Shown one piece after another: positions 12,447 to 63,945 of a DNA stretch of 64,000 nt. Source of the stretch: Kiritimatiellia bacterium. GTDB taxonomy: Bacteria; Verrucomicrobiota; Kiritimatiellia; RFP12; JBMNHG01. The position numbers and the translations under genes were made by a program. The DNA is taken from positions 492,337 through 556,336 of the forward strand of contig JBMNHG010000003.1 in NCBI GenBank assembly GCA_050950285.1, written 5' to 3'. The stretch's first letter is position 1, and each line of letters starts with the position of its first letter. Below the pieces are notes generated by a model, which was not told the DNA's origin, made no database searches, and saw only the letters and a program-made list of their open reading frames with translations.

Positions 12447-14684
12447 TTATCGAAGGATCAGCAACGTTTCTCGAATGGTGATCGCTGCTCCGCCATTCCG
12501 CCACGTCACGGTCTCCAACGATGGCTCGCCATTGATGTACACCGCCCAGTTCTTCACGTTCGCAACGTCCGACGCATCGGTGAATGTGATCGGGATTGCA
12601 GCGCCACGCAGCGCCTTCGGATCGGCGACGTTCACGAGGTGAAACGCGCCGGTCGGTGCGAACCGGACGTTCTTCAACGTTCCGCCTTCGAGAACCCAGT
12701 CCACGGAAAGGTTGGAAACCGTTTGCCCGTCGCGAACGAGCGAGCAGTCGAGCGTCGCGCCCTTTTCGACTCGGACATGCGCTGTTGCAGGCAGGCCGCC
12801 GTCGGTCGTTTCGCTCGGCGCTTGCTGGGCAAAATGCAGCATGTTGGTCGGCCAACCGTCGTTGTTGGGCGTGCCGTATCCGCCGTTGTTGTACCACTTC
12901 TGCCCATTCACGACGTTGGGATAGTCCTTTTGCTCGTCCATCAGCTCCCACGTCCCGTCTGCGCCCGTCGGGCTGGATTCCAGCGACCACGTGCGCGGGA
13001 AGCACGTGACGTCAGCCCACTGCGTCTTTAAATTATAGCCGCAGGCCATGTTTCCATCGGGAATCCGATACGTCCAGGCAACCCAGGTGTTCGGGTAGTC
13101 GGGATTGGGCTTCGGGTAGTCGAACTGACAATGGTATACTGCCGAGCTAAACCAGATCCTGCTTGGAGAACCAACGGAACAGGAATAGCCGTTGGGCGAC
13201 GACACATTGTACTGGCGGGGCGCAAAGGACGTCGCATCTCCAGTGTTCAGGGTGTAGTAATCCCCCGTTCCTCCATCCCATGGGCCTGCGCCGCCATCGA
13301 CGAATCGCATGTTGGCGTCCAAAAGTCGCACGGGCCCGATTTGCAGCGTGTTGTTCGGCGCTTGCGTGCCTTTCACGGTGAAGCGCCACCAGCGGTTGTC
13401 GGTTCCGGCCGCCTGGTTCCCGAAGACGAGACTGCCGGCGGCCACGCAAAGATTGGTGATGCCGGAAACCGTGTCGCCGATGTAGTACAGCGTGCCCGCG
13501 CCCGATTTCGTCACGGATCCCACCAGCGGTTCAGCGTCGCCATCGTAAAGGGTTCTCTTTGCAATGACGAGCGTTCCGACGATGGTGCCGCCGTTGCGCA
13601 GTTCAATGTCGCCGCCGTTGTAGGCGCCGGCTCGGACGATTCCGCCGTCAATGATCAATTTGGCTCCAGGCCTGAGGGAAAGATTGCCAATCTGAACGTC
13701 CGTGCCCGGGATTGCAGGCTGGATCGTCGTCGTCCCATTTTCGAGGACGAGCCTCGGAATCGCGTTGCAGCCGATGGCGAAGCTTCCCGTCCCGCGCTTG
13801 ACGACCGACACGCCGCCATACACCGGGGCGTCCAGGATCGAGCCATCCGCCTCGAATATCAGACTGGCGGTTCCCCATGCGGTGTTCACGTCGTTGGTGA
13901 TGTAGGCCACCGCCTCCGCTTTCTGGATCGGGTCCTGGAGGGTAATCGGAACGACACGGATGCGTTCGGCTCTCTGGTTCTGCCAATTCATCTCGATCAC
14001 GCCGCCCGCCGAGCCATCCGGGGAGCCGAGCCAGATGTCGCCCTTGGGAAGGATGTAGGGGGCGTAGCAGAAAATCCAACCGTTGCGTCCTGCATGGCAT
14101 CGGCCGAAATACGTGCCGCCCGTGTGTCCCCAATCCGCCGTTTCGACGTTGGAGAGAAACAAACGCAGGCGTGTGTCGGCCACGATCCAGTCTGTCAGGA
14201 TGTGGAGCGCGCCAGCGCCCTCGGTTGTCACACGCCCTTGGCCGACATTGTAGAACTTCCACTGCGAATTCACGTGGCTGAAGACGATGGGATTCGCATT
14301 GTCGCTCACGAGCTTCACCCTGCTCCCCTCGGCGGTGATGAACCAATAGGATCCCCAGCCGCCGGCGTCGATCAGGCGCCCCCCGTTGAAGTGGATGGAG
14401 GTCAAGGCGTTGTTGATGCTTCTCAGATGGCTCAGCCATAGGCTGCTCCCGCTTTCCAGACGGATGGATACGGTGTGGCTGTCGTTGGTCAGGCTGCCAA
14501 AGCCCACGTGCACGTTGTTCGATATCGTGATCGTGGCGTCGCCCGTGATGATGACGGGCAGGCTGATCTGACTGGCCGAGGTGACGACGAAATCTCCGCT
14601 GACGACCGTCGCCGCCATTGCGGAAAGGCAGGCAAAGAAGCAGAGTGCCATCCAGAATGCCATTTGAATCCCTGGTCTTCTCAT
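12447..14684 (-). CDS. Secreted beta-strand-rich protein resembling an autotransporter passenger, with a discoidin-like insert; no barrel; C-terminal RETLLILR tag
   Basis: GGAGG RBS before ATG 14684; signal peptide ...FACLSAMA. Passenger-type repeats VVKRGTGSFAI and VTKSGAGTLYY. RWWRFTVK...PRTWSLESS...WELMDE segment. Confidence 0.75.
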   Translation of the reverse strand: MRRPGIQMAFWMALCFFACLSAMAATVVSGDFVVTSASQISLPVIITGDATITISNNVHVGFGSLTNDSHTVSIRLESGSSLWLSHLRSINNALTSIHFNGGRLIDAGGWGSYWFITAEGSRVKLVSDNANPIVFSHVNSQWKFYNVGQGRVTTEGAGALHILTDWIVADTRLRLFLSNVETADWGHTGGTYFGRCHAGRNGWIFCYAPYILPKGDIWLGSPDGSAGGVIEMNWQNQRAERIRVVPITLQDPIQKAEAVAYITNDVNTAWGTASLIFEADGSILDAPVYGGVSVVKRGTGSFAIGCNAIPRLVLENGTTTIQPAIPGTDVQIGNLSLRPGAKLIIDGGIVRAGAYNGGDIELRNGGTIVGTLVIAKRTLYDGDAEPLVGSVTKSGAGTLYYIGDTVSGITNLCVAAGSLVFGNQAAGTDNRWWRFTVKGTQAPNNTLQIGPVRLLDANMRFVDGGAGPWDGGTGDYYTLNTGDATSFAPRQYNVSSPNGYSCSVGSPSRIWFSSAVYHCQFDYPKPNPDYPNTWVAWTYRIPDGNMACGYNLKTQWADVTCFPRTWSLESSPTGADGTWELMDEQKDYPNVVNGQKWYNNGGYGTPNNDGWPTNMLHFAQQAPSETTDGGLPATAHVRVEKGATLDCSLVRDGQTVSNLSVDWVLEGGTLKNVRFAPTGAFHLVNVADPKALRGAAIPITFTDASDVANVKNWAVYINGEPSLETVTWRNGGAAITIRETLLILR

Positions 14685-14924
14685 TTTCAGTTCCTCCATT
14701 GGTTGTCGTTTTGCTCCACGTCGAACGGCCTGGTCCTCGCTGGACACAAGTCGCCGAAGTTGGTGCCATTATAACCCGGGTCAAGTCTTTTCGATAGACT
14801 CTATTTTTAGCAATAGGTCACGATTCTGGAAAACAAGTTTCTGCAATGTCGATTCAGCATGACGCATCCGGGGGCCCTTCAAAGGCCGCTGTTCAAGCAA
14901 CTGGGTTCGTGATAGACTGCCTTC

Positions 14925-16103: not shown

Positions 16104-16274
16104 CAAACCGACTGCCAGCCGCCAGTGGCCAGAGTCGCAGGGCAGCGTTGTCGCGATCTTTGTCGCGAACTTTGTCGAAACTGGGTATGCAGTTGGCTCA
16201 ACCAGACACAACATCTTGTGGCGGCACGATTTTTGATCGCGGGTTGGGGGCTGTGACGACCGCCAATAATGCTA

Positions 16275-16424: not shown

Positions 16425-16611
16425 TAGCTTGTCAAACAGCAGAACGCGGCTCTTCGTGGTTCCCAGCGTCGCCAAATAAGCCAGACAGGCGTCCTGCGTC
16501 GCAAACCTGCGGTCCAATTCGGCCATGCTGGTCGGATAGTCGTTTATGGATGGTCATACTACAGGTTGTGGCAGGTTGAGTCAACTGCATACCCAGTTTG
16601 TCGAATTTTCA

Positions 16612-16737: not shown

Positions 16738-16861
16738 CGACACGGCTCCCATGGGCGAACCAAACGCCAATGCGCTGGAGCCCGCCGCGTGTCACCACCT
16801 GCGCCCATTCGCCCGCGCTCGGCGCGGTGCCTCGGTGAGTGGGCGCAGAAAGATCTTTTGC

Positions 16862-18955: not shown

Positions 18956-18963
18956 GTTGGTAA

Positions 18964-19257: not shown

Positions 19258-20241
19258 TTATCGGAGCATCGAGATGGTGTTGCCCCTGGGATCCAGCACG
19301 CCGGCGAATTCCGCGGCGGTGGGGGTGTAGGTGACGGCTCCGCCTCGGCTTCCGACTTTGCCCTTGATGCGGACGAGGACGAGGTAGCGGCGGTATTCCT
19401 CCGCGTCCATCACCGGCGAGACCGGCGCGGAGTCGAAGCCGCCCACGCGGTTTCCGATGAGGGAGCAGGAATCGCCGAGGCCGAAGGCGAGGAGGATGCC
19501 TCCGCTGCCGTAGAGGGTTTTGAAGGCGGCTTCGTTGTCGGCCTGCTCCACATCGTCCACGAGGATTTTGCCGGCATAGGTATAGGCGACGTTTTCACCG
19601 CAGGCCTTGTAGATGTTCGGGCCGACGGGCGTGCGGCCCTTGGTCGCGCCGGGATTGACCACGGCCACGGCGAGGCCGGCGGCGAGTTCCGTTGCGACGG
19701 AGGCGCACTTGTCGGGATTGCCGATCTCGCCCTGGGCCCATGCTCCGTCGTCGCCGACACGGCTCATCGTGCCGTCCGTCCCGCGCATGATGTATTGGAT
19801 GCCGAGGGTGTCGCGGAGCATCGTCGCCTCCGCTTCGGAGAGGTAGTAGGTGCCGAGGAGCTTGGCGGACGAGCCGGCCCAGGGGTTGGCGGTGCCGAGG
19901 AGCTTGGCGCTTGAAAGGCCCACGTTGCCGGGCTGGTTCGTGTAGATCATCAGCGGCGCGACGCTTCCGAGGTCGGCGGTGGAGTTGGCGGCACCCGGGG
20001 CCGCACCGTACATCGTGAGGGCGTCCAGGCGATTGAAGTCGAGGTCGTCGTAGTTCGCGGCCACGTAGGTTTCGATGCCGCTGGAGATGCGGGTGAGGTT
20101 GGCGAGGTTGACGCGTTCCTTCGATCTTTCCTGCACGCCGCCGAGCTTTTGGATGGCCAGGACGGAGAGGATCGCGACGATGGCGATGACGACGAGGAGC
20201 TCGATCAGGGTAAAGCCGCGCTTGCGGGGGGAAATGTCCAT
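19258..20241 (-). CDS. Prepilin-type (type IV pilin/pseudopilin) N-terminal cleavage/methylation domain protein
   Basis: RKRG|FTLIELLVVIAIVAILSVLAI class III signal peptide with Glu at +5. Confidence 0.9.
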   Translation of the reverse strand: MDISPRKRGFTLIELLVVIAIVAILSVLAIQKLGGVQERSKERVNLANLTRISSGIETYVAANYDDLDFNRLDALTMYGAAPGAANSTADLGSVAPLMIYTNQPGNVGLSSAKLLGTANPWAGSSAKLLGTYYLSEAEATMLRDTLGIQYIMRGTDGTMSRVGDDGAWAQGEIGNPDKCASVATELAAGLAVAVVNPGATKGRTPVGPNIYKACGENVAYTYAGKILVDDVEQADNEAAFKTLYGSGGILLAFGLGDSCSLIGNRVGGFDSAPVSPVMDAEEYRRYLVLVRIKGKVGSRGGAVTYTPTAAEFAGVLDPRGNTISMLR

Positions 20242-22311: not shown

Positions 22312-22845
22312 CTACGGCTGTTCAAGCTGCTTGAGGAAGAGGCGCCGGACCCAGCTGTCTTCGGCGACGACGCCTTGCTCGGCCAGGACGCAGATGGCGG
22401 TAACGATGACGCAGGCGATCAGTACGCCGAGAACGTTCGCCCAGAAGAATTTCTTTTTGTCGAACCCCAGCAGGTAGGCGCCGAACGCGCCCGTATAGGC
22501 GCCCGTGCCCGGAAGCGGTATGCCGATGAAGACCGCCAGGCCGATCTCGCCGTATTTCTCCACGTAGGGGCGCAGCTTGTCCTGCGTGCGGGCGAAGAAG
22601 GGCCAGATGTGCAGGTCGAACCATCTCCATCGGCGCAAGAGGCTCACGACGGGCCCCATCAGCCAGAAGACCGCCACGCCTACCAGCACGTTCGCGACAA
22701 AGCAAATCGCGGCCACGTTCCCCCAGCCGCCGACCGTTTCGCGGCATGTCGTCGTGAAGAAGCCCACTGGAATCGACGCACGAAGTTCGAGGCCGGGGAT
22801 GGCGGTCCAAAACGCCAGGAAGGCAATTGCTTTCAAGATGTCCAT
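22312..22845 (-). CDS. Small multidrug export-like membrane protein (COG2426-like)
   Basis: PGLELRASIP and FIGIPLPGTGAYTG motifs; four hydrophobic segments. Confidence 0.85.
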   Translation of the reverse strand: MDILKAIAFLAFWTAIPGLELRASIPVGFFTTTCRETVGGWGNVAAICFVANVLVGVAVFWLMGPVVSLLRRWRWFDLHIWPFFARTQDKLRPYVEKYGEIGLAVFIGIPLPGTGAYTGAFGAYLLGFDKKKFFWANVLGVLIACVIVTAICVLAEQGVVAEDSWVRRLFLKQLEQP

Positions 22846-23208
22846 AAAGCCGGAAGGATAGCGGAAATGCCGGACAGGGTTCAAGGACAGGATTTGGCGA
22901 TGGATGGGCCGATGCACGATCCTTTGCCCGGCTTTGCCGCCGGGCGCGAGAGGAAGTTGGGGGCCAACGCGGCCTGCCTGGGGACCGCCGTCCCCGGCGG
23001 GCCGGATGGCCGGATGGATGGACGACCTCCGTGTCGTCCGGCCGGGTTTTGCAAGCGCGATCTTTTCAGCCACGATCTTTTAATCTTGCTTCCACAACCC
23101 GTTTTTGTCATCATCTTATTCAAAGAAGCGCAGGGCTTCCCGGAAAAGAGTTTCGGCGTCCCCCTGCGGTTGCCAACGCAACAACCAGCTCGACAGCGAG
23201 GAAACGCC

Positions 23209-25296
23209 ATGAAAAAGTTGCTTTCCACCGTTTTTCTTGCCTTTGTCGCGACGGCGGCAACGGCCGTCGACGTCGATGGCGTCTGGACGTCCGCCACGAG
23301 CGGCTTCTGGGACGATCCGTCCGCCTGGACGGGCGGCGTCCCCTCCGGCAACGGCTCCGCGACGATCACGCAAGCCGGCGCCGACTACACGGTCGCCGTG
23401 ACATCGGATGTCGGCACCGTCGGCTCGCTCCTGGTCGGCGGCGGCCCGTCGAGCACCACGACGCTCGCGGTCGCCGCGCCGCTCGGCGTCACCACCGGCC
23501 GGCTCAACGTCGCCCAAGGCGGCGTCCTCGCCGTCCAGGACGGCGGCGTCCTCACGCGCACCGGCCCGTCCGATTCGGCCGAAGGCTCGCTCGTCGTCGC
23601 GGGCGGCGGCACGTTCCGCGTCGAAGACGGCGGCCAGGCCGCCCTCACGAACCTGGCCGGCGAAACAGCCAACCGGCACGTCTACATCGGAAAGAACAAC
23701 CAGTCCGGGCATCTCGTCATGACCGGCGGCAAGATGAAAATCTCCTCGCCCGCGCGGAACAACGGCGATACGCTCCTCTTCATCGGCGACGACTATTCCG
23801 GCACGGCGGACAACCGCCCGTCCCTCCAGATGTCCGGGGACGCGCATCTCGACGTCGCGCTGGTGGGGGCTGATTGGTACAACTACGCCATCAAACTCGG
23901 CAAGCGCTCGCTCGTGACGATGACGGACAACGCGCTGCTCGACCTGCACAACTGCATCAGCGCCCACACGATCTGGGCGGGAAGCGATGGCACCAACAGC
24001 ATCCACCTCTCCGGCCACGCGGCGTTCTACGCGACAAACAGCGGCGCCCGCATTTCCTTCGGCTACCCGGCAAGCGCCATGTGGCAGCCGAACCATTCCT
24101 TCGCGGACATTTCCCTCGCGGACCACGCCGCCATGACGCTTCAGTCGACCACGTTCACGGCCGGCAGGAACGGCGCCGCGACGCTCGCGATCACCGACAA
24201 CGCGACGTTGGCAGTCGTAAACGGCTACTGCGCCTTCCTCCACGCGGGCGCCGGGCTCGGCGGCCGCTGTGAAATCAACATCTCGGGCGACGGATTGCTC
24301 GACATCGGAACAAGCGCGCGATTCGGAACGGCCGGCGAAGCGAGCCTCGTCGGCCCGATCTCGTGCGAAATCAACCAGTCGGGCGGCGTCATCCATGCAC
24401 GGCCGGACAAGACGGGTCCCACCGTCAACGGCATCCGAATGGGCGATACGGCCACCTGGACCGACAAGGTCGACACGAACGCCTACGGCCTCGTCCGCTA
24501 CAATCTTTCCGGCGGCGTCATCTCGAACGCGGCCGTGTTCGTCCTCGGCTGGAAGGCCCCCCTCACGAACGAGCTGGTCCAGACGGGCGGCACGTTCCTG
24601 AGCCTCAACACCATCGACGACAATCCCGCCCATCCGGTCTTCATCGGCCTGAACGGCGGGCATGGCGACTACCGCCTCCTGGGCGGTGTCTCGGACATCC
24701 AGGACGACCTTTTCATCGGCGGCATCTCGCTCCAGCAGGAGCTGTTCAGCAGAGGCTTCCTGGCGGGCGGCAACGAGACGAGCGACGGATACAAAACCCT
24801 CGTCTTCCAGCCCCCGGCAAGCGCACCGGAAACCTTCGGCCGCCTGTACATCGACGGCGGATCGATGACGGTGACGAACCACTACCAGAAGTGGAACCGA
24901 TGTCCCGGCTGGTCCCCACCCGTCGTCCCGGGCAAGGTCTGGGTCGGCCTCAACGGCCGCGGCGTCATCGACATGGGCGAAAAGGGCTCGCTCAAGTGCC
25001 GGGAGCTCATCCTGACCAACGCCACGTCCTCCGCCGTGTCGTTCACGTTCGGCGAGACCGGCGTCGCGCCGATCACCGTCAACGAAAAGCTGACCATCGC
25101 CGAAGGCGCGAAGCTCGCGGTCGACGTCCGCGGCTACAAGGGCGGGACGCTCGCCTGGCACGTCCTGTCGTCGCCGCTTTGCGAAGGCGCATTCTCGCCA
25201 TCGAACATCAGCGTCCTCGGCAACGCCGCCGTCCTGCAAGACACCGACGGCGTGTGGGTGACGATCAACCGCGGGACGTTGATGTTTGTCAGATAG
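23209..25296 (+). CDS. Secreted Gly/Thr/Asn-rich beta-helix (autotransporter-passenger-like) protein; no barrel; C-terminal RGTLMFVR tag
   Basis: GAGGA RBS; signal peptide MKKLLSTVFLAFVATAATA. N-terminal W...SGFWDDPSAWTGG.P motif; repeated xG...G.L.xxGG coils. Confidence 0.8.
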   Translation: MKKLLSTVFLAFVATAATAVDVDGVWTSATSGFWDDPSAWTGGVPSGNGSATITQAGADYTVAVTSDVGTVGSLLVGGGPSSTTTLAVAAPLGVTTGRLNVAQGGVLAVQDGGVLTRTGPSDSAEGSLVVAGGGTFRVEDGGQAALTNLAGETANRHVYIGKNNQSGHLVMTGGKMKISSPARNNGDTLLFIGDDYSGTADNRPSLQMSGDAHLDVALVGADWYNYAIKLGKRSLVTMTDNALLDLHNCISAHTIWAGSDGTNSIHLSGHAAFYATNSGARISFGYPASAMWQPNHSFADISLADHAAMTLQSTTFTAGRNGAATLAITDNATLAVVNGYCAFLHAGAGLGGRCEINISGDGLLDIGTSARFGTAGEASLVGPISCEINQSGGVIHARPDKTGPTVNGIRMGDTATWTDKVDTNAYGLVRYNLSGGVISNAAVFVLGWKAPLTNELVQTGGTFLSLNTIDDNPAHPVFIGLNGGHGDYRLLGGVSDIQDDLFIGGISLQQELFSRGFLAGGNETSDGYKTLVFQPPASAPETFGRLYIDGGSMTVTNHYQKWNRCPGWSPPVVPGKVWVGLNGRGVIDMGEKGSLKCRELILTNATSSAVSFTFGETGVAPITVNEKLTIAEGAKLAVDVRGYKGGTLAWHVLSSPLCEGAFSPSNISVLGNAAVLQDTDGVWVTINRGTLMFVR

Positions 25297-27746: not shown

Positions 27747-30700
27747 ATGAACCGCCTCCCCCCGCTCCTCCTCCTTTTCGCCGCCGCATCCGCCTGCGCA
27801 GCCCCCCCCCTCGCCCCGCCGCCCGTCTCGCCCGCGCCTTTCGCCGGCGGCGAGGCGCAGCGCCTCGACCCGGTGTTCACGGTCGAGAACTACGTCTGGG
27901 GCGGCGGACACGACATCCCCGCCGGAACTCGCCAACGCCCCGTCTATCGCATCGGCGACAAATGCGTCGCCCCGCCGACACGCGCAACGGACGAAGGCAT
28001 GCCCGCGATCTTCCACGAAGGAAAGCGCCTCGTGTTGATCCAGTTCTGGGGCTCGATGGACGATCCGGTCCGCGGCGCGGAGAACCCCGCAACGGGATTC
28101 GGCTACCCCTTCCGCAATCTGCCCGACGACCCGCCGCGCCATGCGTTCGACGCCGAGACCGGTCGCACGACGTGGTCGAAACCCTACCGCCTCCTCGACG
28201 GCACGAAAGCCGTGTTCTCGTGGACGCTCGAACCCGACGGCCCGTCGCGCGTGAAACTCTCGTGGGACACCGGCGCGCCCGACGCGCCGGAAGCCACCGT
28301 GGCCCCCTGGTTCTGCTTCGACTCGTCCGTCGCGCACGAAGACGCCTTCGCCTTTGGCGGCAGCGTCTACACACTGCCACCCGACGAGGCCTTCGACGGG
28401 GCTGCAAACAACACGATCGTCGACGCCGCCACACACACCGGGCGCGAACTCTCGTTCCGAGCCGCCGATCCCGAGCGCGGCTTCCTCGCATTGTTTCCCT
28501 TCGACACGCGATGCCAATGGTCGGCGACGCGCGAGCTCCACGGCCCGAAGCAAAACCTGTCGCGCTTCTCCATCGTCGCGCGTCCGATGCCGACAAACGC
28601 GGTCGAACGCACCGCCTGGGCCCACCAAGGCAGCCTCGTGCTCGACCTCCGCCTGGCGCGGCCCCGGCGCGACGCCGGGCTGCCGCCGCCCGTCGGCGGC
28701 ATCGACTTCTGGGCCGCCGACGCCACGGAAGTGTACGCGCGGCCGGGGCGCAACCTTCTGGTCAACGGCGGCTTCGAACAAGACCTCCATGGCTGGAACT
28801 GGTACGGTGGCGGCGCGACATTCAAGCCCGGCCAGCGCCGCATCCAGGTTCTGGAGACCGACGACGCGCGGTTTGGCTCGCGCTGCCTCTACATCGCCCC
28901 AAGCGGCGGCATCTGGCCTGCGGGACTGAAGACATTCCCGATCCCAACGCAGGCGGGACGCGATTACACGCTGAGTTTCTGGGCAAAAGGCGAACGCCCC
29001 GGCCGTGTGGTAAAAGTCTGGTTCTCCTCCGTCGCGCGAGGCGGCCCCTACAACTGGTACGAACAGGGCCGCCTGGAATCCGCGCGCTATCCGGTCGCCG
29101 AAGAATGGACGCGCTACACGCGGACGATCCCCGGCACGCCCCACGGCATCATGATCCTGATTGATGGCGGAGAAGTCTTCGTGGACGGCATGCAGTTCGA
29201 AGAAGGATCCGAAGCGACGCCCTACGAGCCCGCGCCCATCGAGGGACGCTTCACCACCGAGCGCCCCTACGCCGACTTTGCGCCGGGCGAAACGATCGGC
29301 GCCGCGCTCGAGCTCGCAGGACGCCCCGGCACGGAGGCCAACGTCGCGCTGAGCCTCCAGAACCCCTGGCGGGAAACGCTCTTCGAGACGAACGTCGTCG
29401 CGCGCTTCGACGACGCAGGCGTCGCCCGCATCGACCTCGCCGCGATCGAACGCGCGCCGCTCCTCCGCGGCGTGCTCGCGCTCCGGGCGTTCTACGAGGT
29501 CGAAGGCTTCGCGCCCTGGGCCGACCACTTCCGCTTCAGCGTCCTCGACCGCCTCGACAACCGCCACGCCACGCGCAACCTCGCCGGCTGCCATCTCGGC
29601 GACGCCCAACGCGTTCAGGATGGCGACGAGCTCGCCCGCCTCTTCCGCGAATGGGGCTTCGCCGCGACGAGCCACGGCAGCACCCGCTCCGTCACGAACG
29701 GCGAGGGGCTCGAACTCGCGCGCACAAACCGCTTCACGAACCTCATGCGCCCCGTCACATCCGACCACGCGCCCATCTTCCGCAACATCCGCGACTGGAC
29801 GGACGTGACGCCCGAAATGGAGGCGGAGATCGAGCAAATCGCCTACGACACGGTCCGCACCAACGACGTCATGTTCCGCGGCTGGACGCTCGACAACGAA
29901 GAGGAGAGCTGCCTCCTCCCCCTGAAGAAGCCCGAGATCTACGCCAAGGCGCAGCTCGCCGTCCATCGCGGCGCGCACCGGGCCCGGCCCGACGTGCTCG
30001 TCGCGCCCACGCACGGCACGAGCGGCTACTCCGCCATCCGCGGCTCCGAACCGATGGATGCCTACCTGCGCGAAGCCGCCAGGCTCGGCGTCCTTTACGA
30101 CGTCGTCTGCATCCACCCCTACGGCAACATCGACGGCGGCACGCTGGGCCGGCTCGACCTCGACGCCGAGACCGGGCGCCTGCTCGACTCCATGCGCCGC
30201 AACGGCTACCCGGAGACGACGCCCATCATGTTCACCGAAATGTGGAACGTCCCCGAAAACCACATCCCCGCCTGGGGCGCAGGCCCGAACCTCGACCACT
30301 ACAAAGGCGGCAAGCCGACCTACGACTTCTCCAACCGCGAAGCCGTGGCGGCCGGCTCCGTCGCCCGCGCCTTCATCATCGCCCTGAAGTTCCATCCGCG
30401 CCTCCTCGGCTGCCACTACTGGTGCCATGTGGACATGGACGCACGCCACACGCCGCTCGTCCTCGCCGCCTGCATCAACACCCTGGGCAACCACTTCCCC
30501 GACGCCCGCTTCGTCGCCTCCGCGCGCCCCTCCGCCACCATCCGCGCCTACACCTTCAAACGGGTCGCGGAACCCACGTACACATCCGCGGCCCCCGCGC
30601 CCGCCAAGGCCCCGGCCGGCGTCGCCGCCGTCTGGACGCTCGACCACGATGTCGAAAACGGCCTGCGCCAGGGCCCCGCGCTGCGCGTGAAGTTCGGGCA

Positions 30701-37418: not shown

Positions 37419-38977
<1,559 letters not shown>

Positions 38978-39171
38978 CTAAGGAGAACGGATCATCGGAA
39001 GGTGATCCCAGGTGAAACCCTCTTCCATCGCGAGATGGCCGGGGGAGGCGGTATCGGCAACGACCGCAAACATTCGAAATCAGGCCAAGCTGCCTGGTCG
39101 CGTCCCTTCTGGACCGAAAGCGTGAGCTGTTCGCAATCTCAAGAGCGTCTACCGGTACATCCGCCCTGAAC

Positions 39172-39247
39172 GGGGGCATAGCTCAGTTGGTAGAGCGCGT
39201 GCTTTGCAAGCACGATGTCACCGGTTCGAGCCCGGTTGCCTCCACCA
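39172..39247 (+). tRNA. tRNA-Ala(TGC)
   Basis: Cloverleaf GGGGGCA/TGCCTCC, anticodon arm CGTGC-TTTGCAA-GCACG, encoded CCA. Confidence 0.97.
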
Positions 39248-39284
39248 TGCGATCCATTCGCGGCGGGGCGGGCGGTCTAGATTC

Positions 39285-39361
39285 GGGCGTGTAGCTCAGT
39301 TGGTTAGAGCGCATCCCTGATAAGGATGAGGTCCCAGGTCCGATTCCTGGCACGCCCACCA
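39285..39361 (+). tRNA. tRNA-Ile(GAT)
   Basis: GGGCGTG/CACGCCC acceptor stem, CATCC-CTGATAA-GGATG, encoded CCA. T-loop reads TCCGATT. Confidence 0.95.
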
Positions 39362-39514
39362 ACCCTATGGCGCAGATGCTCTTGGTCCTAACGCTTTGAA
39401 AGCGGAATCGGCTTGGCCGTTCCGGACTCCGCCTGCGGGCGGAAGATGTTCTTTGACAATTGCAAGTCTGGGTAGAAAACAACGTATACCGAGAAAGTAA
39501 CGAGAGTTTCTTTT

Positions 39515-42423
<2,909 letters not shown>

Positions 42424-42515
42424 TTCTTCTTCATGACGAAACACTCTAACTTTCGACGTGTCCGTCGTTTCTCCCAGACTTGCATCCTTTTCCGACTTCG
42501 GTCGGTACACCGTTT

Positions 42516-42632
42516 TCCCGGTGATCATAGCGAGGAGGTAACACCCGTTTCCATTCCGAACACGGCAGTGAAGGGCCTCAGCGTCGAGGGTACTGTGGGG
42601 CTTGCCCATGGGAGAGTAGAACATTGCCGGGA
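42516..42632 (+). rRNA. rrf: 5S rRNA
   Basis: TCCCGGTG...TGCCGGGA terminal helix; CCATTCCGAACAC; GGGAGAGTAG. Confidence 0.95.
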
Positions 42633-52872: not shown

Positions 52873-52892
52873 CCGGATGTGCCGGAAGCGGG

Positions 52893-55800
52893 CTACTTCG
52901 CGATGGTGATGTCGCCCCAGCGGGCGGGGGAGAGACGGGACTCGCTCGGGACGTCCGAGACCAGGCCGGTCGCCTTGTCGTGCCAATAGAGGCGGGAGAG
53001 GCGGTTGTCGCCGGCGGGGTTCGAGTAGATCACGCCCACGATGCCCTTGAGGGTGGAGCCGAGCGCGTCGCCCGAGAGTCCGATTTCGGCCAGGGGCACG
53101 GTGACGAGCACGGTGTAGGTTCCGATGCCCGTGGCGGCCTGCACCTTCGCGTTCGGAACGAGCTTCACGACGTCGAAGCTCGACGCGTTGGCCATGTTGT
53201 TGCCCACGGAGTAGGTGATGGGGTTCGAGGGTTCCTCGGCCTTCTGCTGCCAGAAGACGACCGTTCCGCGCCCGCCCATCGGCGCCGCGAGGATGCGGCA
53301 GGGGCCGCGGCCGGGAATGTCGAGCTGCAGGTCGACGCAGTCGCCGCCGATGAAGAGGTGGGTGAAGCGGCCTTCGGCGTTCATCCAGGGCGAGGGGTCG
53401 GCCACCTGGAACATCATCGCCAGGTCGCGGCCGTTGTGGGCAAGCGCGGCGCGCCACCACGTGGCCTTGTTGCCTTCCTCGGAAACGGCGACGTCCACGG
53501 CGCCGTCGATGAGCGGCCGGCTCATCGGTTGCATGACCGGGGCGGGCTCGGCGGGCAGGCGGTTCGTGCGGGCGATGGTGACGGTCGCGGGCTCGCGGAC
53601 GGAGTCCTGCTGGCGGGTTTGGACGATCGCGAGCCCCTTCGCGATGTCGTCGGCGGTGATTTCGATGTCCTGGTCGAGCCGCACGCAGGTTTCGAGGCCG
53701 GTGACCTCCATCAGGCGGTAGGAGGGGCCGCCGAGCTGGACGAACACCTTGCCGGTGGCGGAGTCGCGCCAGAAGAAGCCGCCGAAGGATTCCTGGCCGA
53801 TGAAGGTCTCGTCGAGCACGACGTTCCCCTTGCTGTCCTGGCAGATCGAGGAGATGTAGAGGCCGTCCATCGACAAGAGGAACCACTCGCCGCGGTCGCC
53901 GCCGAGGGCCATCACGCTGCCGACGCCGGGGACGTCCTCGACCACGCCGTTCGCGCGGAAGGGGGCGATGAGCACGCCGCGCTGGGCGGCGGGGGCGTCA
54001 TGGCGGCCGTAGCGGTTCGGATAGGCGCCGATTCGGCCGTCGGCGGTCTGGTACCGGATGCCGTTCGAGACGTTCCCGGCGTTGTCCACGACGGGCGTGC
54101 CCACGGAGCCTTGGCCGTCGGGGAAGGACTTGCCGTCGCCCAGCGAGGTGGGGTGGGCGAAGTCGTAGATGGGGGCGCCGGCCTCGGTGAAGCCCGTCGG
54201 GCGGAAGAACTTGTTGTTCGTGAGGAGGATCGACAGGTCGGGGCGGATCCAGCCGTTCGACCAGTAGAGGTTGCGGGCGTCGAGGCCTTCGAAGACCTCG
54301 CCTTCGTCTTCCTCGTGGTTGTTGTTCGTGTCGGTCCAGGCGGTGCCGGGGATGTCGACCCACTTGTTGTCGATCCTCTCGCGGCGGTTCCACGTGATCT
54401 TGGTGCAGATGCGGAAGACGCCGTCCTCGCCGCGCAGGAAGATCTTGAGGGAGTCGGGCTTGTTGTAGCCGGGGCATCCGGCGGCGTATTCGCGGCCGTT
54501 GAAGCGGTAGACGAGGCCTCGTTCATGGGCGAGCCCGGGGTGGTAGACGAGCGGTTCCTCGTTGGTCTTGCGGTGCCAGGGGTCGGGATTCGGATCGAGC
54601 TGGAACTCGATGCCGTGGGCGATGAAGCGCGTGGCGTCGAAGGTGAGCGGGAAGCCGGCCATCGCGCCGTAGTCGGCCATGCCCCAGTACTGGTCGACCA
54701 GGTGGTAGTCGGCGGCGTCCCAGCAGGTGACGCGCTTGCAGGTCGTCACGCACTCGGCGACCCAGAGCCGGCCGAGGTGGTCGAAGTCGGCGCCGAGCGG
54801 GCGGATGAGGTCCGTCTTCACGAAGGGGCCGGCGGGGCGGTCGCGACCGGGGCGGTCGGAGCCAATGGCGGCGATGCGTCCACCGTCGGCGCCAAAGAGG
54901 ACGACCTGGTTCGAGGCGAGGTCGGAGACGGCGAAGCGCTTCTCGTCCATGTCGATGCCGAGGCGGACGGGGTCGCGCAGGCCGCCGAGCTTCGCGACGT
55001 CGCCGATGGGCTGGCCGTCGGGGCCGAGGAGGCGCACCGATCCGTCCGCGTAGAGGGCGAAGAGCTTTTCGTTGCGGTCGGTGAGGGCGCGCAGGCCTTC
55101 GGGGCGTTCGAGGGTTTCGAGGATGGTGCCGGTCCGGGGGTCGATTTTGAGGAAGGCGCGGCCGGGGCAGAAGACCCAGAGGGCGCCATGGGCGATGGCG
55201 ATGGTGGAGGTGTCCGTGATGTTGGCATCGTCGAGAATCTTGGCGTTCGGGGTCCGGTTGGCGTCCTCGAAGGGTTCGAGGTGGCCGTCGGTCACGCGAT
55301 AGCGGGCGATGAGGGTGCAGCTCTGCCAGGAAGAGCGGGAGAGACCGTAGGAGTAGGTGTCGTCGAGGGTGCCGTCGACGAACTCGTTGTGGTCGGCCCA
55401 GAGGATGATGCCGTCGTCGTCGATGCGCTGCATCCCGGAGCCGCCCTCGGTGCCGGTGAAGAGCAGGACGGTCTTGTCGCCCCGGGTGGCGACGGAGGTG
55501 GGATGGCCATGGTTGGCGCCCCAGAGTTTCGACCCGCTCTCCGTGTTCCACGGCGGGGTGGCGGAGGAGTAGACCGAGTTGTAGAATTTGAGGGCGATGG
55601 GGACGTGGTGGACGACCGTGGCGCGGTAGGTCCCGGGGGCGACGGGATTCCCGTTGTCGTCGAGGCAGTCCCAGAGGTCGGTCACGTCGCCGGCGGAGCG
55701 CGGGTACTGGCCGAAGAGGTTGCGGACGCGGCGGCCCTGGGCGTCGTCGATGGCGATGGTCACGTCGCGGTCGGCGGGGAGGGTGTAGGCGATCGGGACG

Positions 55801-56690
55801 CTGCCGTAGGTGTCGTAGTCCACGAAGTTCTTCTGGCGGGCCTTCTGGAGGGCCTTCTGTTCTTCGGTGACGGCGAGCCCGCCCTTGTCCAGGATGAGGG
55901 CGCGGCCCCAGCCGGGGCGGGCGCGGAACATGAAGATGCGGTTGACGGTTTCGTCTTTGATGCCGTCCGCGAGGCGGTGGGCGAGCATTTCGCCGGCGGC
56001 GTTGCCCCACATGGCCTCGATGCCGTAGGTGAAGGACTCGCCGGGCCGGAGGGCCTCGCCGGAGGTGCGGCAGTAGCTCCACGGCCAGAACACCTCCATG
56101 TTGTATCCCTTGCCGTCCTCCCACGGGGCGAAGGCGATCTGCCCGCCGGCGGCCTCCATGGTGGGGCCCCATTTCTCGAGCTGGTCGGGGCGGTCGGGCC
56201 CGGTGGCGTCGTAGGGGGGATTGGCCCTGAAGCCGCCGTGCTTGACGATCATGTACGGGCGGTCGTCCGGCGTGGAGTAGTACATGTTCACATGCATTTG
56301 GTGCTCTTCGGGAAGACCGTCGTCGAAGACCACGCGGGCCTGGTAGCAGTCGGCGCGCCAGCTCATGGAGAAGTCCTTGCCGGCGGCGGCGTTCTTCATC
56401 GGCGAGCTGTCGACGTAGCGCGCGAGCATGTACACGCCCTTCGCGTCCCACATCATGTGGGTCCAGACGCTGTAGCGCTCGACGATGAGCGGGTCGTTGT
56501 AGCTCCAGACGCCCGCCGAAAGATCCCAGTCGCCGTCGAGCCCGTCGATCGTCACCGCGCCCGGAGCGGGAAGGACGGCGATCTCCGAGTTGAAGGACAT
56601 GGTGCGGTCGTCGGCGGGCGCCGGAAGCGCGAGGATGGCCGAAAGGGCCAGCGCGGAAGCAACGGGGAAGCGGGGTTTCACGGGTTTCAC
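52893..56690 (-). CDS. Large secreted protein: CBM9-like ends, FlgD-Ig-like domain, beta-propeller core
   Basis: AGGAG RBS plus GTG at 56690; signal peptide ...ILALPAPA. TIDGLDGDW; VTIAIDDAQGRRVRNL...WDCLDDNGNPVAPGTY (FlgD-like); RPLGADFDHLGRLWVAE (NHL-like); terminal PARWG. Confidence 0.75.
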   Translation of the reverse strand: MKPVKPRFPVASALALSAILALPAPADDRTMSFNSEIAVLPAPGAVTIDGLDGDWDLSAGVWSYNDPLIVERYSVWTHMMWDAKGVYMLARYVDSSPMKNAAAGKDFSMSWRADCYQARVVFDDGLPEEHQMHVNMYYSTPDDRPYMIVKHGGFRANPPYDATGPDRPDQLEKWGPTMEAAGGQIAFAPWEDGKGYNMEVFWPWSYCRTSGEALRPGESFTYGIEAMWGNAAGEMLAHRLADGIKDETVNRIFMFRARPGWGRALILDKGGLAVTEEQKALQKARQKNFVDYDTYGSVPIAYTLPADRDVTIAIDDAQGRRVRNLFGQYPRSAGDVTDLWDCLDDNGNPVAPGTYRATVVHHVPIALKFYNSVYSSATPPWNTESGSKLWGANHGHPTSVATRGDKTVLLFTGTEGGSGMQRIDDDGIILWADHNEFVDGTLDDTYSYGLSRSSWQSCTLIARYRVTDGHLEPFEDANRTPNAKILDDANITDTSTIAIAHGALWVFCPGRAFLKIDPRTGTILETLERPEGLRALTDRNEKLFALYADGSVRLLGPDGQPIGDVAKLGGLRDPVRLGIDMDEKRFAVSDLASNQVVLFGADGGRIAAIGSDRPGRDRPAGPFVKTDLIRPLGADFDHLGRLWVAECVTTCKRVTCWDAADYHLVDQYWGMADYGAMAGFPLTFDATRFIAHGIEFQLDPNPDPWHRKTNEEPLVYHPGLAHERGLVYRFNGREYAAGCPGYNKPDSLKIFLRGEDGVFRICTKITWNRRERIDNKWVDIPGTAWTDTNNNHEEDEGEVFEGLDARNLYWSNGWIRPDLSILLTNNKFFRPTGFTEAGAPIYDFAHPTSLGDGKSFPDGQGSVGTPVVDNAGNVSNGIRYQTADGRIGAYPNRYGRHDAPAAQRGVLIAPFRANGVVEDVPGVGSVMALGGDRGEWFLLSMDGLYISSICQDSKGNVVLDETFIGQESFGGFFWRDSATGKVFVQLGGPSYRLMEVTGLETCVRLDQDIEITADDIAKGLAIVQTRQQDSVREPATVTIARTNRLPAEPAPVMQPMSRPLIDGAVDVAVSEEGNKATWWRAALAHNGRDLAMMFQVADPSPWMNAEGRFTHLFIGGDCVDLQLDIPGRGPCRILAAPMGGRGTVVFWQQKAEEPSNPITYSVGNNMANASSFDVVKLVPNAKVQAATGIGTYTVLVTVPLAEIGLSGDALGSTLKGIVGVIYSNPAGDNRLSRLYWHDKATGLVSDVPSESRLSPARWGDITIAK

Positions 56691-60366: not shown

Positions 60367-60444
60367 GGCGTGGTTGTGCCAGGCCCCGTCCCAGGATCGT
60401 GCAACGGTTTTGGCGGCGCGCCCTTTTTGTTCGTCCGGAAAAGG

Positions 60445-63400
60445 CTAGCGGAGCAAGAACAGCGTGCCTTGCGACGCTACGCCGCCGGAGAGGCAGATGT
60501 TGTCGAGGTGCCAGCACTCTCCGCCCCAGACGCCGCCGCTGCCGATGTCAAAGCCGGCGATGCCATTGCCCGTGGGCGAATGGAAGCCGAGGCCGGTCGC
60601 GACGCACTCGCCATCGACGTACGCGTCGAAGGTCTGCGACGCCATGTCGAGCACGAACTCGAGGTGGTAGATCGGCGTGCGGTTGCCGAGGTCGCCGCGA
60701 ATGACCATGTCTTCGACAAGCATCGCGCTTTGCTCGTTGCCATGGCCATCCCCGTAGAGGACGACGAGATCATCGCTATGCTGCGGCATCTGGATGCTGA
60801 GAATCACGCCGAAATCCGAGCTCTCCCCGCGATTGGAATGGAGGTTGAAGTAGCACCATCCGTCGTTGTCGTGGGAATTGAAGAGTTGGCCGCCAAACGC
60901 GAGATCCACCGAGAACACCCATGGATCGCCGGCGACATGGCGGTCGGTTCCTGCGATTGGCTCGGTCACGCCGGAGCCGGGAAGGAGCTGGAGGCGGCCG
61001 GTGTCATGGTGGATGCGGACGAACGCCCACTGTGTGGCGAACGGGCCCTGGGGCGCCATCGTGCACGAGTCGGCGCGGTTCATCAGGCTGTAGCGGAGCG
61101 CATGGGTCGGGAGCGTCATGCCGCCGTGGATGTCGTACGGCGCGCACTCGATAGGCACAAAGCCATTTTCAAGCTGCGGCGGGCGCATCATCGGGTCGTC
61201 GTCGAAGGTGATCGCGAACGCACCGATGCGGCGTGTGCGGGCGCGCCGCGAGACGCTCGAGGCGTCGGCGTGGATCGTGACCGTGTAGCGGGTGTGCTCG
61301 GCCAGGCCGCCGACATCCGCCGAGTGCGACGTGCCGTATGCGCCAAAAGCGGAGCGAACGGTTTCGCCGCCACCATCAGGCGCGCACTCGATCCAGCCGA
61401 TTGCGGCGATGTCGGTCGTCCACGTCGCGGAAAGATGCCCGATATGGTTCGTGGAGATCGCGACGTCCAAGATCACGGGATTGTCGACGAGGTAGTCGAA
61501 GGAGACGGCGGAGCCGGATCGGGCGCCGCCGGCCTCGGCGACAGCGTAGTATGTCTTGCCGGGGACGAGGCCTTCGATCACCGCCGAATGCGATGTGACG
61601 GGCGCGGGTTCGTACGCGGTCACGCCATCCGTGGCGGCGGCGGTCGTGCCGTGCCAGATGCGTCCGCCGGTCGGGGTGGCTGTGGTCCAGGTCGCGGTCG
61701 GGACGCCATCCGACACGGTCACCGCGAGACCGGCGACGGGCGCGGCGGACGCGGCGTAGGCGATGCCCTGCGTGAACTCGGCGATCGCTCCGTCCTCCCC
61801 GAGGAGCCAGAGGGCGACGGCATACTCCGTGCCGTTGGCCGGAGAAGGAATCGTGGCGGAGGACGGGAACGTTCCGGATACCCAGCGGGCGTCGTCGCCG
61901 TCGACGGGAGCTTGCGGGTTCGTGCCGACCTCGAGGATGTACTTCGTGTACCCCGGCCCGAAGGCCGTGCCCGCGATCGAAAGCGCGGAGCCCGTCGCCG
62001 TGGCGGGATCGCCCGTGACGGCGTCCGTCACCCGGAAGCCGGGAATCGTGTTCGCCACCTTGTCGGCGGCGAGGCGGATGTTGTCATAGCGGTACTGCGT
62101 CTCGCCGAACGCGTAGGCGGTCATCTGGGCATGGATGTAGATGCCGCCGATGCCCTTTGTGGCCATTGAGCCATTGAGCGGGTAGACGCCTGGAGCATAC
62201 GCCAGCTCGCCATCTGCGAGGCCGCCTTTCACGCGGAAGGTGCCGGACTCGGCATCGATTTCGACGACGGTGCGATAGCACTGGTTCCCGAGGGCGTTGG
62301 GGATGTAGTCGACATGGCCATCGGGATAGCCTACGAGATAGCCTCTCTCGGCGCAGACGAAGTAGAGAAGGTTGTCGACATTGCCGCTGGCGTCCGGCGC
62401 GGAACGGAGGATGACGGCCGGATAGACGACGCGGTTGGCGATCACATCGTAGAGGGTGTCGGTCGGAGGATAGCCGTAGCCCATGTCGAAGGAGAAGGTC
62501 CACAGGCGGCCGTTGCCGGGATTGGCCGTCGTGCCGGTGAAGGGCGTGAGGTTCGGGGCCTCGAGCTGGAGGGTGCCGCAATCGCTGTTGTGGCCGAAGA
62601 GCCGCGCGTGCTGGGACGTGAAGCCCAAGCCGGGCCGGGGCTGGTCGATGCCGGACCCACGCCATCCGTATCCATTGCGGTGGACGGCCGTCGGATGCTT
62701 CATGCCGCCGTTGGCGTTGAAGGCTTCCGTCGCGATCGGGGTGCCTTCGTTCGCCCATTCCTCGCTCTCGAAGTCGAGGTTGAAGGCTTCGTATTTCGCG
62801 ATCAGGGTCACGAGGACGTTCGTCGAAGCCGACACGCCGGCCTCGTTCATGCCGGCGAGGGTGACGATGTAGGGCTGTGCGCGCGGAGCGAGGGTGAGAT
62901 AGTCCGCGGCGGGCGTCTGGTCCTCGGGGCAGGAAACGACGAGGCTCGAGAAGACGCCGAGGTTCGGCAGGGAACCTTTGTCGATGTCGGCAACGGTGAT
63001 GGTCGCGGACTGGTCGCCGAGGCAGGGCGGCGCGCAATCTTCCGCGATCATGGTCGGCGGCGTGTTCGAGTAGACGATGCCGTACGACGTGGAGTAGAGC
63101 GTGCTGTTCGTGGACTGGAGCCAGACATGGATGTCCACGAGCCCGCTCGGGTCGGTCTCGGGGAAGGCGATGGAGCCGGGGACGTCCGCGGGGTCGTAGG
63201 CGAGCCATCCGTCGGGATCGAGGTCGGCGGGGTCGGAGGAGAGGGAAACCTGGTATCGGTCGCAATCGTCCTTCACGGGGAAGACGGCGGCGTTCAATAC
63301 GTTCGTGCAGGTGTAGGCGGCGCTGCCCGTGATCGGATTCTTCAGCACCAAGTCCGTTGCCGCCAGCCGGTATGAGATGTCCGTGAAGAACTGGTCGTTG

Positions 63401-63945
63401 CGGTCCGTCATGCTCACGCGCACGTAGTCGCCGCCGCCGCCTTCCTGGAGCTTGATGGTGATGGAGTTGACGCCCGGCGAGAGGTAGTCGTCGCAGACGT
63501 GTTCCTGGCCGTCGTAGTTCTGGCGGTAGATCTGGCGCCCGTTGCAGAAGACCTTGAGATGGTCGTCATGGTAGAAGCGGTAGCGGACTTCGCGGGTGTC
63601 GGCGCCCGGCACGACAAGATAGATGTGGAAGTAGGCGACGTACTGGTCGGTGTCGGGCTTCCACATGCCGCTGGCGTCGACCGTCATCTCCGTCCAGGTG
63701 TAGGTGCCGGCGGCGCCGAGGTCGACCGTCATGCCGTCGAAGGGGCGGATGTTCGCCTCGCTGCCATGGCCATGGGCCTGGAAGATGTCGGAGTCGATGT
63801 TGCAGTATGCGGTGGGGATGTTTTGCTGGAGCGTCGATCCGAGATGGAGCATGTGCCGCCAGTAGCCCTGCGGCAGGAGTTGGGCATTGGCGAAGGCCGC
63901 GAAGCCGAAGACGGCGGTGGCCACAAGAATCGGACGTACTTTCAT
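60445..63945 (-). CDS. Large secreted beta-sandwich protein (PA14-like and FN3-like modules); C-terminal QGTLFLLR tag
   Basis: GGAGG RBS; signal peptide ...GFAAFANA. HDDHLKVFCNG...GVNSITIKL (PA14-like); ATWTT...HSAVIEGLVPGKTYY and ATWTTD...HSADVGGLAEHTRY (FN3-like pair). Confidence 0.8.
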   Translation of the reverse strand: MKVRPILVATAVFGFAAFANAQLLPQGYWRHMLHLGSTLQQNIPTAYCNIDSDIFQAHGHGSEANIRPFDGMTVDLGAAGTYTWTEMTVDASGMWKPDTDQYVAYFHIYLVVPGADTREVRYRFYHDDHLKVFCNGRQIYRQNYDGQEHVCDDYLSPGVNSITIKLQEGGGGDYVRVSMTDRNDQFFTDISYRLAATDLVLKNPITGSAAYTCTNVLNAAVFPVKDDCDRYQVSLSSDPADLDPDGWLAYDPADVPGSIAFPETDPSGLVDIHVWLQSTNSTLYSTSYGIVYSNTPPTMIAEDCAPPCLGDQSATITVADIDKGSLPNLGVFSSLVVSCPEDQTPAADYLTLAPRAQPYIVTLAGMNEAGVSASTNVLVTLIAKYEAFNLDFESEEWANEGTPIATEAFNANGGMKHPTAVHRNGYGWRGSGIDQPRPGLGFTSQHARLFGHNSDCGTLQLEAPNLTPFTGTTANPGNGRLWTFSFDMGYGYPPTDTLYDVIANRVVYPAVILRSAPDASGNVDNLLYFVCAERGYLVGYPDGHVDYIPNALGNQCYRTVVEIDAESGTFRVKGGLADGELAYAPGVYPLNGSMATKGIGGIYIHAQMTAYAFGETQYRYDNIRLAADKVANTIPGFRVTDAVTGDPATATGSALSIAGTAFGPGYTKYILEVGTNPQAPVDGDDARWVSGTFPSSATIPSPANGTEYAVALWLLGEDGAIAEFTQGIAYAASAAPVAGLAVTVSDGVPTATWTTATPTGGRIWHGTTAAATDGVTAYEPAPVTSHSAVIEGLVPGKTYYAVAEAGGARSGSAVSFDYLVDNPVILDVAISTNHIGHLSATWTTDIAAIGWIECAPDGGGETVRSAFGAYGTSHSADVGGLAEHTRYTVTIHADASSVSRRARTRRIGAFAITFDDDPMMRPPQLENGFVPIECAPYDIHGGMTLPTHALRYSLMNRADSCTMAPQGPFATQWAFVRIHHDTGRLQLLPGSGVTEPIAGTDRHVAGDPWVFSVDLAFGGQLFNSHDNDGWCYFNLHSNRGESSDFGVILSIQMPQHSDDLVVLYGDGHGNEQSAMLVEDMVIRGDLGNRTPIYHLEFVLDMASQTFDAYVDGECVATGLGFHSPTGNGIAGFDIGSGGVWGGECWHLDNICLSGGVASQGTLFLLR

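Follow-up and report, generated by a model that had tools for sequence, protein, structure and literature searches.

The window analysed here, a 64,000-nucleotide stretch from the genome of a Kiritimatiellia bacterium, encodes three large exported proteins that end in nearly the same seven residues, of the form G-T-h-h-h-h-R (h, apolar residue) directly before the stop codon. The genome carries this tail on 77 proteins. Counts in relatives, the strictly terminal register and the leaders of the tagged proteins bear out the original prediction of a lineage-restricted, terminal tag on exported proteins that lacks a transmembrane (TM) helix, and we hold it very probable that the tail is a sorting or docking tag of some kind. 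As for its mode of action, we see about an even chance that it is a free terminal beta-strand, read by strand addition, which routes its cargo out of the cell, probably via type II secretion.

A terminal heptapeptide and its cargo

A scan of the whole proteome, as suggested by the original prediction, takes the motif far beyond the window. In the 4.05-Mb, 99%-complete genome, 2,721 genes were called with our own hexamer caller, whose stops are reliable and whose starts are often wrong. The strict pattern with its free carboxylate (G-T-h-h-h-h-R-COOH) is terminal in 66 of these genes, where 0.06 would be expected from its frequency at internal positions (23 of 1,068,410). This is a 1,100-fold enrichment, and shifted by one to six residues from the end the same pattern occurs in none of the 2,721 genes. 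Scores of a profile trained on the tails are bimodal: 78 genes reach at least 11 bits, the range from 5.3 to 11.3 bits is empty, and leave-one-out scores do not drop below 5.9. One 7-TM protein was removed as a false match; the remaining 77 tagged genes, to which six borderline ones (3.4-8 bits) were not added, make up 6.6% of the called coding residues (79,394/1,197,479).

The consensus of 74 distinct tails has G in 64, T in 62, four apolar positions and R in 69; among all 77 tags the last residue is R in 72, K in 4 and Y in 1. Positions -5 to -2 are all apolar, such that both faces are hydrophobic and polar alternation is absent. The apolar run spans 4-9 residues in 76 of 77, and a Kyte-Doolittle value of 1.6 over 19 residues is reached by a single tag. 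In 47 of the 73 distinct tags, a proline stands between -11 and -8. Within the tag, second codon positions are fixed, third positions follow the usage of the genome and the DNA past the stop is not conserved; selection hence acts on the peptide, and a DNA-level repeat is ruled out. The stop codon itself is TAG in 41 of 74 tagged genes, compared with 845 of 2,719 genome-wide.

In the window, the tagged proteins and their tails are as follows.

12447-14684, minus strand: tagged exported protein 1, 745 amino acids (aa); beta-solenoid body; leader at 14613-14684; same start in the database record
12447-12470, minus strand: tag of protein 1, E-T-L-L-I-L-R-stop; genome profile score 15.2
23209-25296, plus strand: tagged exported protein 2, 695 aa; rich in Gly, Asn and Thr; matches no family; leader at 23209-23265
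25273-25296, plus strand: tag of protein 2, G-T-L-M-F-V-R-stop; genome profile score 15.5
60445-63945, minus strand: tagged exported protein 3, 1,166 aa; a single weak FN3-like match; leader at 63883-63945
60445-60468, minus strand: tag of protein 3, G-T-L-F-L-L-R-stop; genome profile score 23.2

All three tails lie where they had been reported, at 12447-12476 (minus), 25267-25296 (plus) and 60445-60474 (minus), each followed by a stop, and the glutamate codon of copy 1 is indeed GAA. By inspection, the three genes have the Sec-type leaders that had been proposed, with gene starts at 14684, 23209 and 63945. For protein 2, the open reading frame starting at 22201 includes a shadow stretch of low third-position GC, the real start being 23209, which a protein search also returned; beneath this extension lies a small membrane-protein frame (22312-23073, minus) that is not in the called gene set. 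The bodies are as dissimilar as had been claimed (best pairwise BLASTP E values of 0.7, 1.6 and 1.6, that is, no alignment), and the full pattern is likewise confined to these three in the window: all 26 other called genes score 4.7 bits or less, against 15.2-23.2. Among them, a prepilin-type protein (19258-20241, minus) has an end that is borderline on the profile (4.7 bits) and may be so by chance. An exported CBM4/CBM9-like protein (27747-31832, plus) has a look-alike end with its Gly one residue nearer the terminus (-10.4 on the profile), which is the usual last strand of its family and a decoy for motif scans.

The body labels of the original prediction, two beta-helix-like and one PA14/FN3-like, held in part. 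The model of protein 1 is rich in beta-solenoid, and protein 3 has a single sub-threshold FN3-like Pfam match (PF16656, E 3e-6), but no PA14 match was obtained at E 0.01; protein 2 has no family match, and our search returned no real homologue of it. The last domain of protein 3 recurs in one further tagged protein from this genome. For protein 1, 19 of 19 homologues (24-36% identity) retain the tail, with position -7 being G in 11, P in 6 and A in 2 and the last residue R in all, which, from these sequences, makes the E of copy 1 the odd one out. In the protein 1 model, which gave no Foldseek match at E 0.001, tail residues 740-744 form a low-confidence strand past the last domain (pLDDT about 53 versus 71-87 before it), a picture compatible with a free tail and no proof of one.

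What do the tagged proteins have in common? Their median length is 1,012 aa. Enrichment among signal-peptide proteins had been put forward as a check, and a leader is called in 61 of 77 tagged versus 537 of 2,643 other genes, and in 226 of 694 other genes of at least 500 aa, by a simple heuristic that is not SignalP and whose 16 tagged misses include several start-call errors, protein 2 among them. An extracellular-type composition (Gly/Asn/Thr/Ser-rich, few charged residues), by an index devised after averages had been inspected, characterises 66 of 67 tagged proteins of at least 400 aa as compared to 44 of 225 untagged leader-bearing ones. The last 100 residues before the tail fall into 44 unrelated groups, 39 of them singletons and the largest (27 of 77) with a choice-of-anchor Q-like end; because of these 44 groups the tag is not a shared domain, nor the last strand of one. 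Pfam searches with 26 of the 77 found beta-helix, PATR, LamG, F5/8, PA14, PKD, FG-GAP, LRR, Gly-rich, GDSL and S8 matches, and none for 8. Both C25 peptidases of the genome carry the tag.

Small tagged proteins also exist that consist of little beyond leader and tail (78 aa); the 78-aa peptide had no usable match in the Atlas. Its locus (L169, G000:C3:843000-848900) resembles a diversity-generating retroelement, with reverse transcriptase, HRDC and FGE-sulfatase-fold genes, a partial second FGE copy and a seemingly frameshifted target gene, followed by the leader-plus-tag peptide with three short internal repeats. Elsewhere, a 218-aa exported protein with a borderline tag lies directly upstream of two exported FGE-sulfatase-fold genes (L295:2022-5407). 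Furthermore, L175 and other copies in the genome hold about 15 near-identical N-termini of giant RHS-like genes (a label given by eye). In 7 of these a tag-ending frame lies 5 bases upstream, and in 4 of the 7 it is a whole exported protein of about 215 aa; the copies, which include one diverged pair, are not independent. The tag-ending frame is possibly a tagged partner for untagged cargo.

Exchange with other C-terminal signals

A 267-aa tagged protein has three full-length homologues, one of which ends in a tag variant and two in PEP-CTERM at the same column, TIGR02595 being above cut-off for one of the two. A profile from these four proteins, which includes the PEP columns and so favours PEP-bearing matches, found 1,408 matches. 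By rule, the best 150 of them end in PEP-CTERM (80), a domain of about 70 aa described below (10), the tag (5) or otherwise (55); by eye, these other ends comprise further variants of PEP-CTERM, another 2-3 tags, ends of dockerin-like and MYXO-like type and six T9SS-like ones (type IX secretion system, T9SS). Five of the six match TIGR04183, four of them above cut-off, and one dockerin-like end has a sub-threshold NF041540 match. A single-sequence fold of the 267-aa protein was uninformative (pLDDT 36). C25 homologues give a similar picture: among 31 loci, 13 frames close within the locus, and of these 6 have tag-like ends, 6 the 70-aa domain and 1 an unrelated end. Since homologues of one tagged body end in other signals at the same place, the tag behaves as an interchangeable sorting signal. 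Sorting signals are identified by just such swapping of ends on homologous bodies (bioRxiv 10.1101/2023.06.07.544157), and the tag shows this pattern minus TM helix and basic cluster.

The second domain, of about 70 aa with the signature Y-x8-L-x4-W ... F[FY][RK][VI], is C-terminal on large exported proteins. It occurs in 35 genes of this genome, none of them tagged (for example L170:4411-4626 and L174:312-527; alignment A3), and in 36 of 41 relatives. No real Pfam match was found in 20 members, and it corresponds to no Pfam or NCBIfam family; we regard this F[FY][RK] domain as a candidate second sorting signal.

Does the tag fit any described signal? That it fits none had been claimed, and 0 of 11 tails match, at E 10, a sorting-signal model in either Pfam or NCBIfam (June 2026); a control tail with PEP-CTERM did match in this hidden Markov model test, although a 7-residue motif could slip past the HMMER filters. 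Judged by its sequence, the tag fails the defining features of tripartite signals, T9SS C-terminal domains (CTDs) and the BAM beta-signal. The latter is likewise an end strand that has a Gly upstream and is read by strand addition, but it is the amphipathic strand of a barrel and ends in an aromatic residue. In contrast, the tag ends in Arg or Lys in 76 of 77 cases (aromatic in 1 of 77), lacks polar alternation and is carried by cargo other than barrels. Like the dockerin of dockerin-cohesin pairs, the tag is an interchangeable C-terminal module on extracellular glycan-active proteins, but it has only seven residues and no Ca-binding repeat, and no repeat scaffoldin was seen by self-BLAST of 332 exported proteins of the genome.

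PEP-CTERM (TIGR02595, PF07589) is likewise C-terminal, present many times per genome on unrelated leader-bearing bodies and swapped on homologous ones, and G-T-h-h-h-h is a loose register match to the residues after its PEP. However, the tag has neither the TM helix nor the PEP (0 of 73 distinct tags) that is the near-invariant signature of PEP-CTERM (Haft et al. 2006, PMC1569441), and the two coexist on different cargo: the tag on large proteins, PEP-CTERM mostly on small ones (open frames below 400 aa in all but 2 rows). The original prediction that the tag is used where other Planctomycetes-Verrucomicrobia-Chlamydiae bacteria use PEP-CTERM thus stands insofar as the tag occupies the PEP-CTERM column in homologues, but not as a replacement, since this genome still encodes two exosortases along with 5-6 PEP-CTERM proteins. 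Like PEP-CTERM, the remaining tripartite signals (GlyGly-, PGF-, MYXO- and JDVT-CTERM and LPXTG; bioRxiv 10.1101/2023.06.07.544157) have a TM helix and a basic cluster of 2-5 residues, whereas the tag has one terminal basic residue.

T9SS CTDs of type A (TIGR04183) and type B (TIGR04131, PF13585 CHU_C) share with the tag Sec export followed by a terminal-strand core signal, similar cargo (C25, choice-of-anchor Q, LamG) and, for the CTDs of the swap set, an h-h-h-h-R/K end like the last five positions of the tag. The T9SS signal lies in the last two strands of the CTD (PMC4804311), and type B depends on five motifs spread across 100 residues as well as on a cognate shuttle (PMC12618676). A CTD is, however, a folded domain of 70-100 aa, which the tag does not have, and the tagged proteins scanned gave no TIGR04183 or PF13585 match. 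Our literature search, which covered titles and abstract starts without subscription journals and supplements, found no paper on the tag.

Spread among relatives and candidate readers

Tags were counted in relatives with DNA patterns for the G-start and P/A-start forms, less reversed controls. Among 41 genomes of the order, 19 have at least 15 tags (tag-rich) and 13 at most three (tag-poor). Dialects differ by lineage, with G-T in 62 of 74 tags here and P/A-F in genome G028; family f11 combines zero tags with the most PEP-CTERM, and family f3 few tags with 2-11 F[FY][RK] domains. Over the 41 relatives, tag and PEP-CTERM counts show no anti-correlation (Spearman 0.02). Outside the order only the G form was counted, so the range of the tag may be wider: in the rest of the class, two (G092 and G178) out of 137 genomes stand out as clearly rich, and in the 168 genomes from other classes the count is never above 5. 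A species-wide scan returned at least 120 stretches, of which 80 were compared by title: the pattern ends a frame of at least 200 codons in 28 of 33 Verrucomicrobiota records, 2 of 5 from untitled bacteria and 5 of 42 others. One of the latter five (L101) has a FlgD/CHU_C-like CTD with the full tag pattern as its last strand, the domain match being under cut-off. Homologues, where named, are assigned to Kiritimatiellae. By these sequence counts, the tag clusters in a single Kiritimatiellia-like order, where its dialects are G-T and P/A-F.

What, then, could read it? The original prediction of a dedicated translocon, enzyme or scaffold found no support, every candidate tested either failing to track the tag or being universal in the order. 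Exosortase, whose presence had been singled out for checking, is encoded twice in this genome and found in 41 of 41 relatives, tag-rich and tag-poor alike, with intact Cys/Arg/His columns, including 7 relatives without a PEP-CTERM match. Complex prediction from the exosortase alignment and the last 40 residues of protein 1 was uninformative (score 0.01, mark 0.32). In most cases the exosortase of the order carries a fused periplasmic domain that contains a Cys-rich insert (L001:634-2331, minus; L179-L206); in family f10 it is short and unfused. The genome has one rhomboid, and as candidate PDZ readers we found just one DegP-like and one RseP protein.

Secretins number six in the genome, of which two contain the N0 domain of GspD; their neighbours include GspM- and PilM/N-like genes. 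Each of the 41 relatives has 2-6 secretins. A stand-alone GspD beside a tagged gene was rejected as reader: strong orthologues occur in 18 of 41 relatives, all in six related families, and no tagged gene lies within the 1.5-kb flanks of the 18 loci. Single-query profiles of this kind follow kinship, since an unrelated barrel shows the same spread. One Amuc_1099/1100-like pilus operon with a secretin is preceded by a 2,745-aa exported TPR protein (L164, G000:C8:659000-678000). A supposed precedent, in which the tail of Acinetobacter CpaA is read by CpaB, was dropped as it is contradicted by PMC7542363, according to which the CpaB tail enters CpaA.

Components of a T9SS were sought as well. A C25 (PorU-like) peptidase does not track the tag: 10 of the 19 tag-rich genomes have one, as do 7 of the 13 tag-poor ones, and the search found none in G015, G021, G028 and G035, all of them tag-rich; the C25 peptidases of this genome are partial PorU-model matches far under cut-off. 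There was no SprA candidate in the 99%-complete genome, although the control set gave no match either, PorP/SprF was not found, and the PorV model matched, far under cut-off, only a 420-aa barrel that we take to be FadL-like. Other outer-membrane exits are a BamA, a rare paralogue of Omp85 and a TpsB that has a partner of its own. This second Omp85 occurs in 4 of 41 genomes, two further small barrels each in 1 of 5 test genomes, and two candidate giant barrels of about 1,050 aa are glycosidase-plus-CBM9-like by Atlas features; ranking the barrels of the genome left no large unexplained one.

Self-BLAST of 332 exported proteins of at least 400 aa revealed no repeat scaffoldin, though short or diverged repeats would escape; internal repeats of at least 50 aa occur in 8 of the 332 (six with an F[FY][RK] domain, one with the tag and one broken). 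Apart from enzymes of sugar loci, no gene family in the neighbourhood goes with the tag. An exported, CBM9-like family with a FlgD-Ig domain (52893-56690, minus, and 24 paralogues) lies within two genes of a tagged gene in 11 of 25 cases versus 16 of 92 for other large exported proteins (P 0.008, a comparison chosen post hoc), an adjacency explained by shared sugar loci. As a strand acceptor this family was rejected; its domain seems to have its own last strand.

Possible routes and their rivals

How might seven residues direct a large folded protein? In the reading we give about even chances, a Sec-type leader evident at the N-terminus would bring the protein to the periplasm, where a Pro-rich or otherwise turn-forming spacer, apparent as a pattern upstream of the tag, would keep the tail clear of the last domain and at a fixed distance to the free carboxylate. 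A periplasmic or outer-membrane receptor could then take up the tail as an extra beta-strand, covering both of its faces and accommodating the last Arg and the carboxylate in pockets; in T9SS CTDs, similarly, it is the last strands that carry the signal. We infer beta-strand recognition from the exact register to the end, the two apolar faces and this T9SS parallel. Folded cargo would then cross the outer membrane through a type II secretin, suggested by elimination because this is the only exit for folded proteins found in the genome, and would end on the surface or in the medium as a glycan-binding, adhesin-like or hydrolytic protein. The tagged proteins have Sec leaders and the genome a type II apparatus, as type II cargo would require.

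Several points weigh against this reading. For known type II cargo, recognition is generally ascribed to folded surface features rather than to a linear tail. Secretins are equally common in tag-poor and tag-rich relatives and therefore do not single out the type II route, while the stand-alone GspD, with a single query, is absent from 5 of 19 tag-rich genomes and follows kinship. About 20 large, extracellular-looking exported proteins of the genome, as judged by eye, lack both the tag and the F[FY][RK] domain, several of their genes being broken. As dockerin-like ends are among the swapped anchors, the swap cannot separate export from docking. Finally, our search named no receptor, and the final location of the tagged proteins is a prediction from their sequences.

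Could the tail dock rather than export? Cargo would then leave independently of the tag, and the tail would serve as a donor strand inserted into a surface receptor (S-layer, lipoprotein or pilus-like scaffold), a mini-dockerin of sorts. We consider this, the main rival, rather unlikely. It would suit a tail that is hydrophobic on both faces without polar alternation and is modelled as a low-confidence strand after the last domain of protein 1, the dockerin-like domains among the swapped ends, and the 78-aa proteins that are little more than leader and tail; yet no untagged protein with a repeat array was detected among the 332 exported ones, with the above proviso on short or diverged repeats, and the neighbourhood of the tag offers only sugar-locus enzymes. 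A tail without any protein reader, which would dip into the membrane (its Arg holding phosphates of lipid A or phospholipids), pair with other tails or cap the protein against tail-specific proteases, seems to us distinctly improbable. The tail is short, very hydrophobic and has one basic residue, and no test found a reader, as this proposal would have it; however, five apolar residues anchor a cargo of 100-250 kDa poorly in a membrane, and the dialects at -7/-6 together with the exact register to the carboxylate suggest a co-evolving pocket.

Other explanations derive the tag from a known signal. It might be a shortened PEP-CTERM, reduced to the start of the hydrophobic segment plus one basic residue and still cleaved and lipid-linked by exosortase or another membrane protease. 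In the direct swap, the tag aligns column for column with the first PEP-CTERM residues; moreover, upstream prolines are frequent, intact exosortase is universal in the 41 relatives even where PEP-CTERM is not matched, and one metagenome Gly-rich beta-solenoid protein (two loci, L243 and L249) ends in PEP plus a short tail, a possible intermediate. This is nonetheless improbable, given that PEP is absent from all 73 distinct tags, that the apolar run is far below a TM helix, that the P/A dialects substitute the Gly and that the fourth residue after PEP is Ala in 41 of 86 PEP-CTERMs and never so at the matching tag position; 45 metagenome matches to PEP plus a short tail are nearly all ends of short chance frames. 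A remnant T9SS, with the tail as last CTD strand removed by PorU-like C25 peptidases, is already largely refuted and very unlikely indeed: the resemblance to CTD ends and the two tagged C25 peptidases with their partial PorU matches are outweighed by the indifferent spread of C25 and by the failure to find SprA (control silent), PorP/SprF, a PorV above cut-off or a large unexplained barrel. Next to no credence can be given to chance, to a repeat at the DNA level or to a single folded domain whose last strand all tails would share, as 27 tails behind one domain type count for little beside the 1,100-fold excess, the 44 pre-tail groups with their singletons and the free synonymous positions. As to its origin, the tag may be a clipped PEP-CTERM or a freed CTD strand, between which seven residues cannot decide.

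A stronger version of the export reading, which we hold only tentatively and would sooner doubt than believe, is that a portable seven-residue tag with a free carboxylate, read by a novel receptor, suffices to send folded proteins of 70-250 kDa over the outer membrane; lineage dialects would then co-evolve with the receptor, and the domain of about 70 aa would be a second signal of the same phylum. If true, a heptapeptide without TM helix would be a new design, as the described small C-terminal sorting signals that we found have a TM helix and T9SS a folded domain, and it would be the bacterial envelope counterpart of a peroxisomal-type terminal signal as well as a very small export tag for engineering. 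Should the tag feed type II secretion, it would be the first short linear signal for that system, and the long-open question of cargo choice would become testable with peptides. With the tag as a one-line criterion, the glycan-binding and adhesin proteins on the outside of this mostly uncultured and little-studied group can also be predicted. New here are the controlled whole-genome count, the five-way anchor swap, the split between large and small cargo, the second domain and the excluded readers.

The window as a whole is a sugar-use region, with GH2, GH78-like, GH5, GH95, GH51, GH109-like, CBM, AraC and prepilin matches, and it also contains a complete rRNA operon with two spacer tRNAs (37419-42632, plus).

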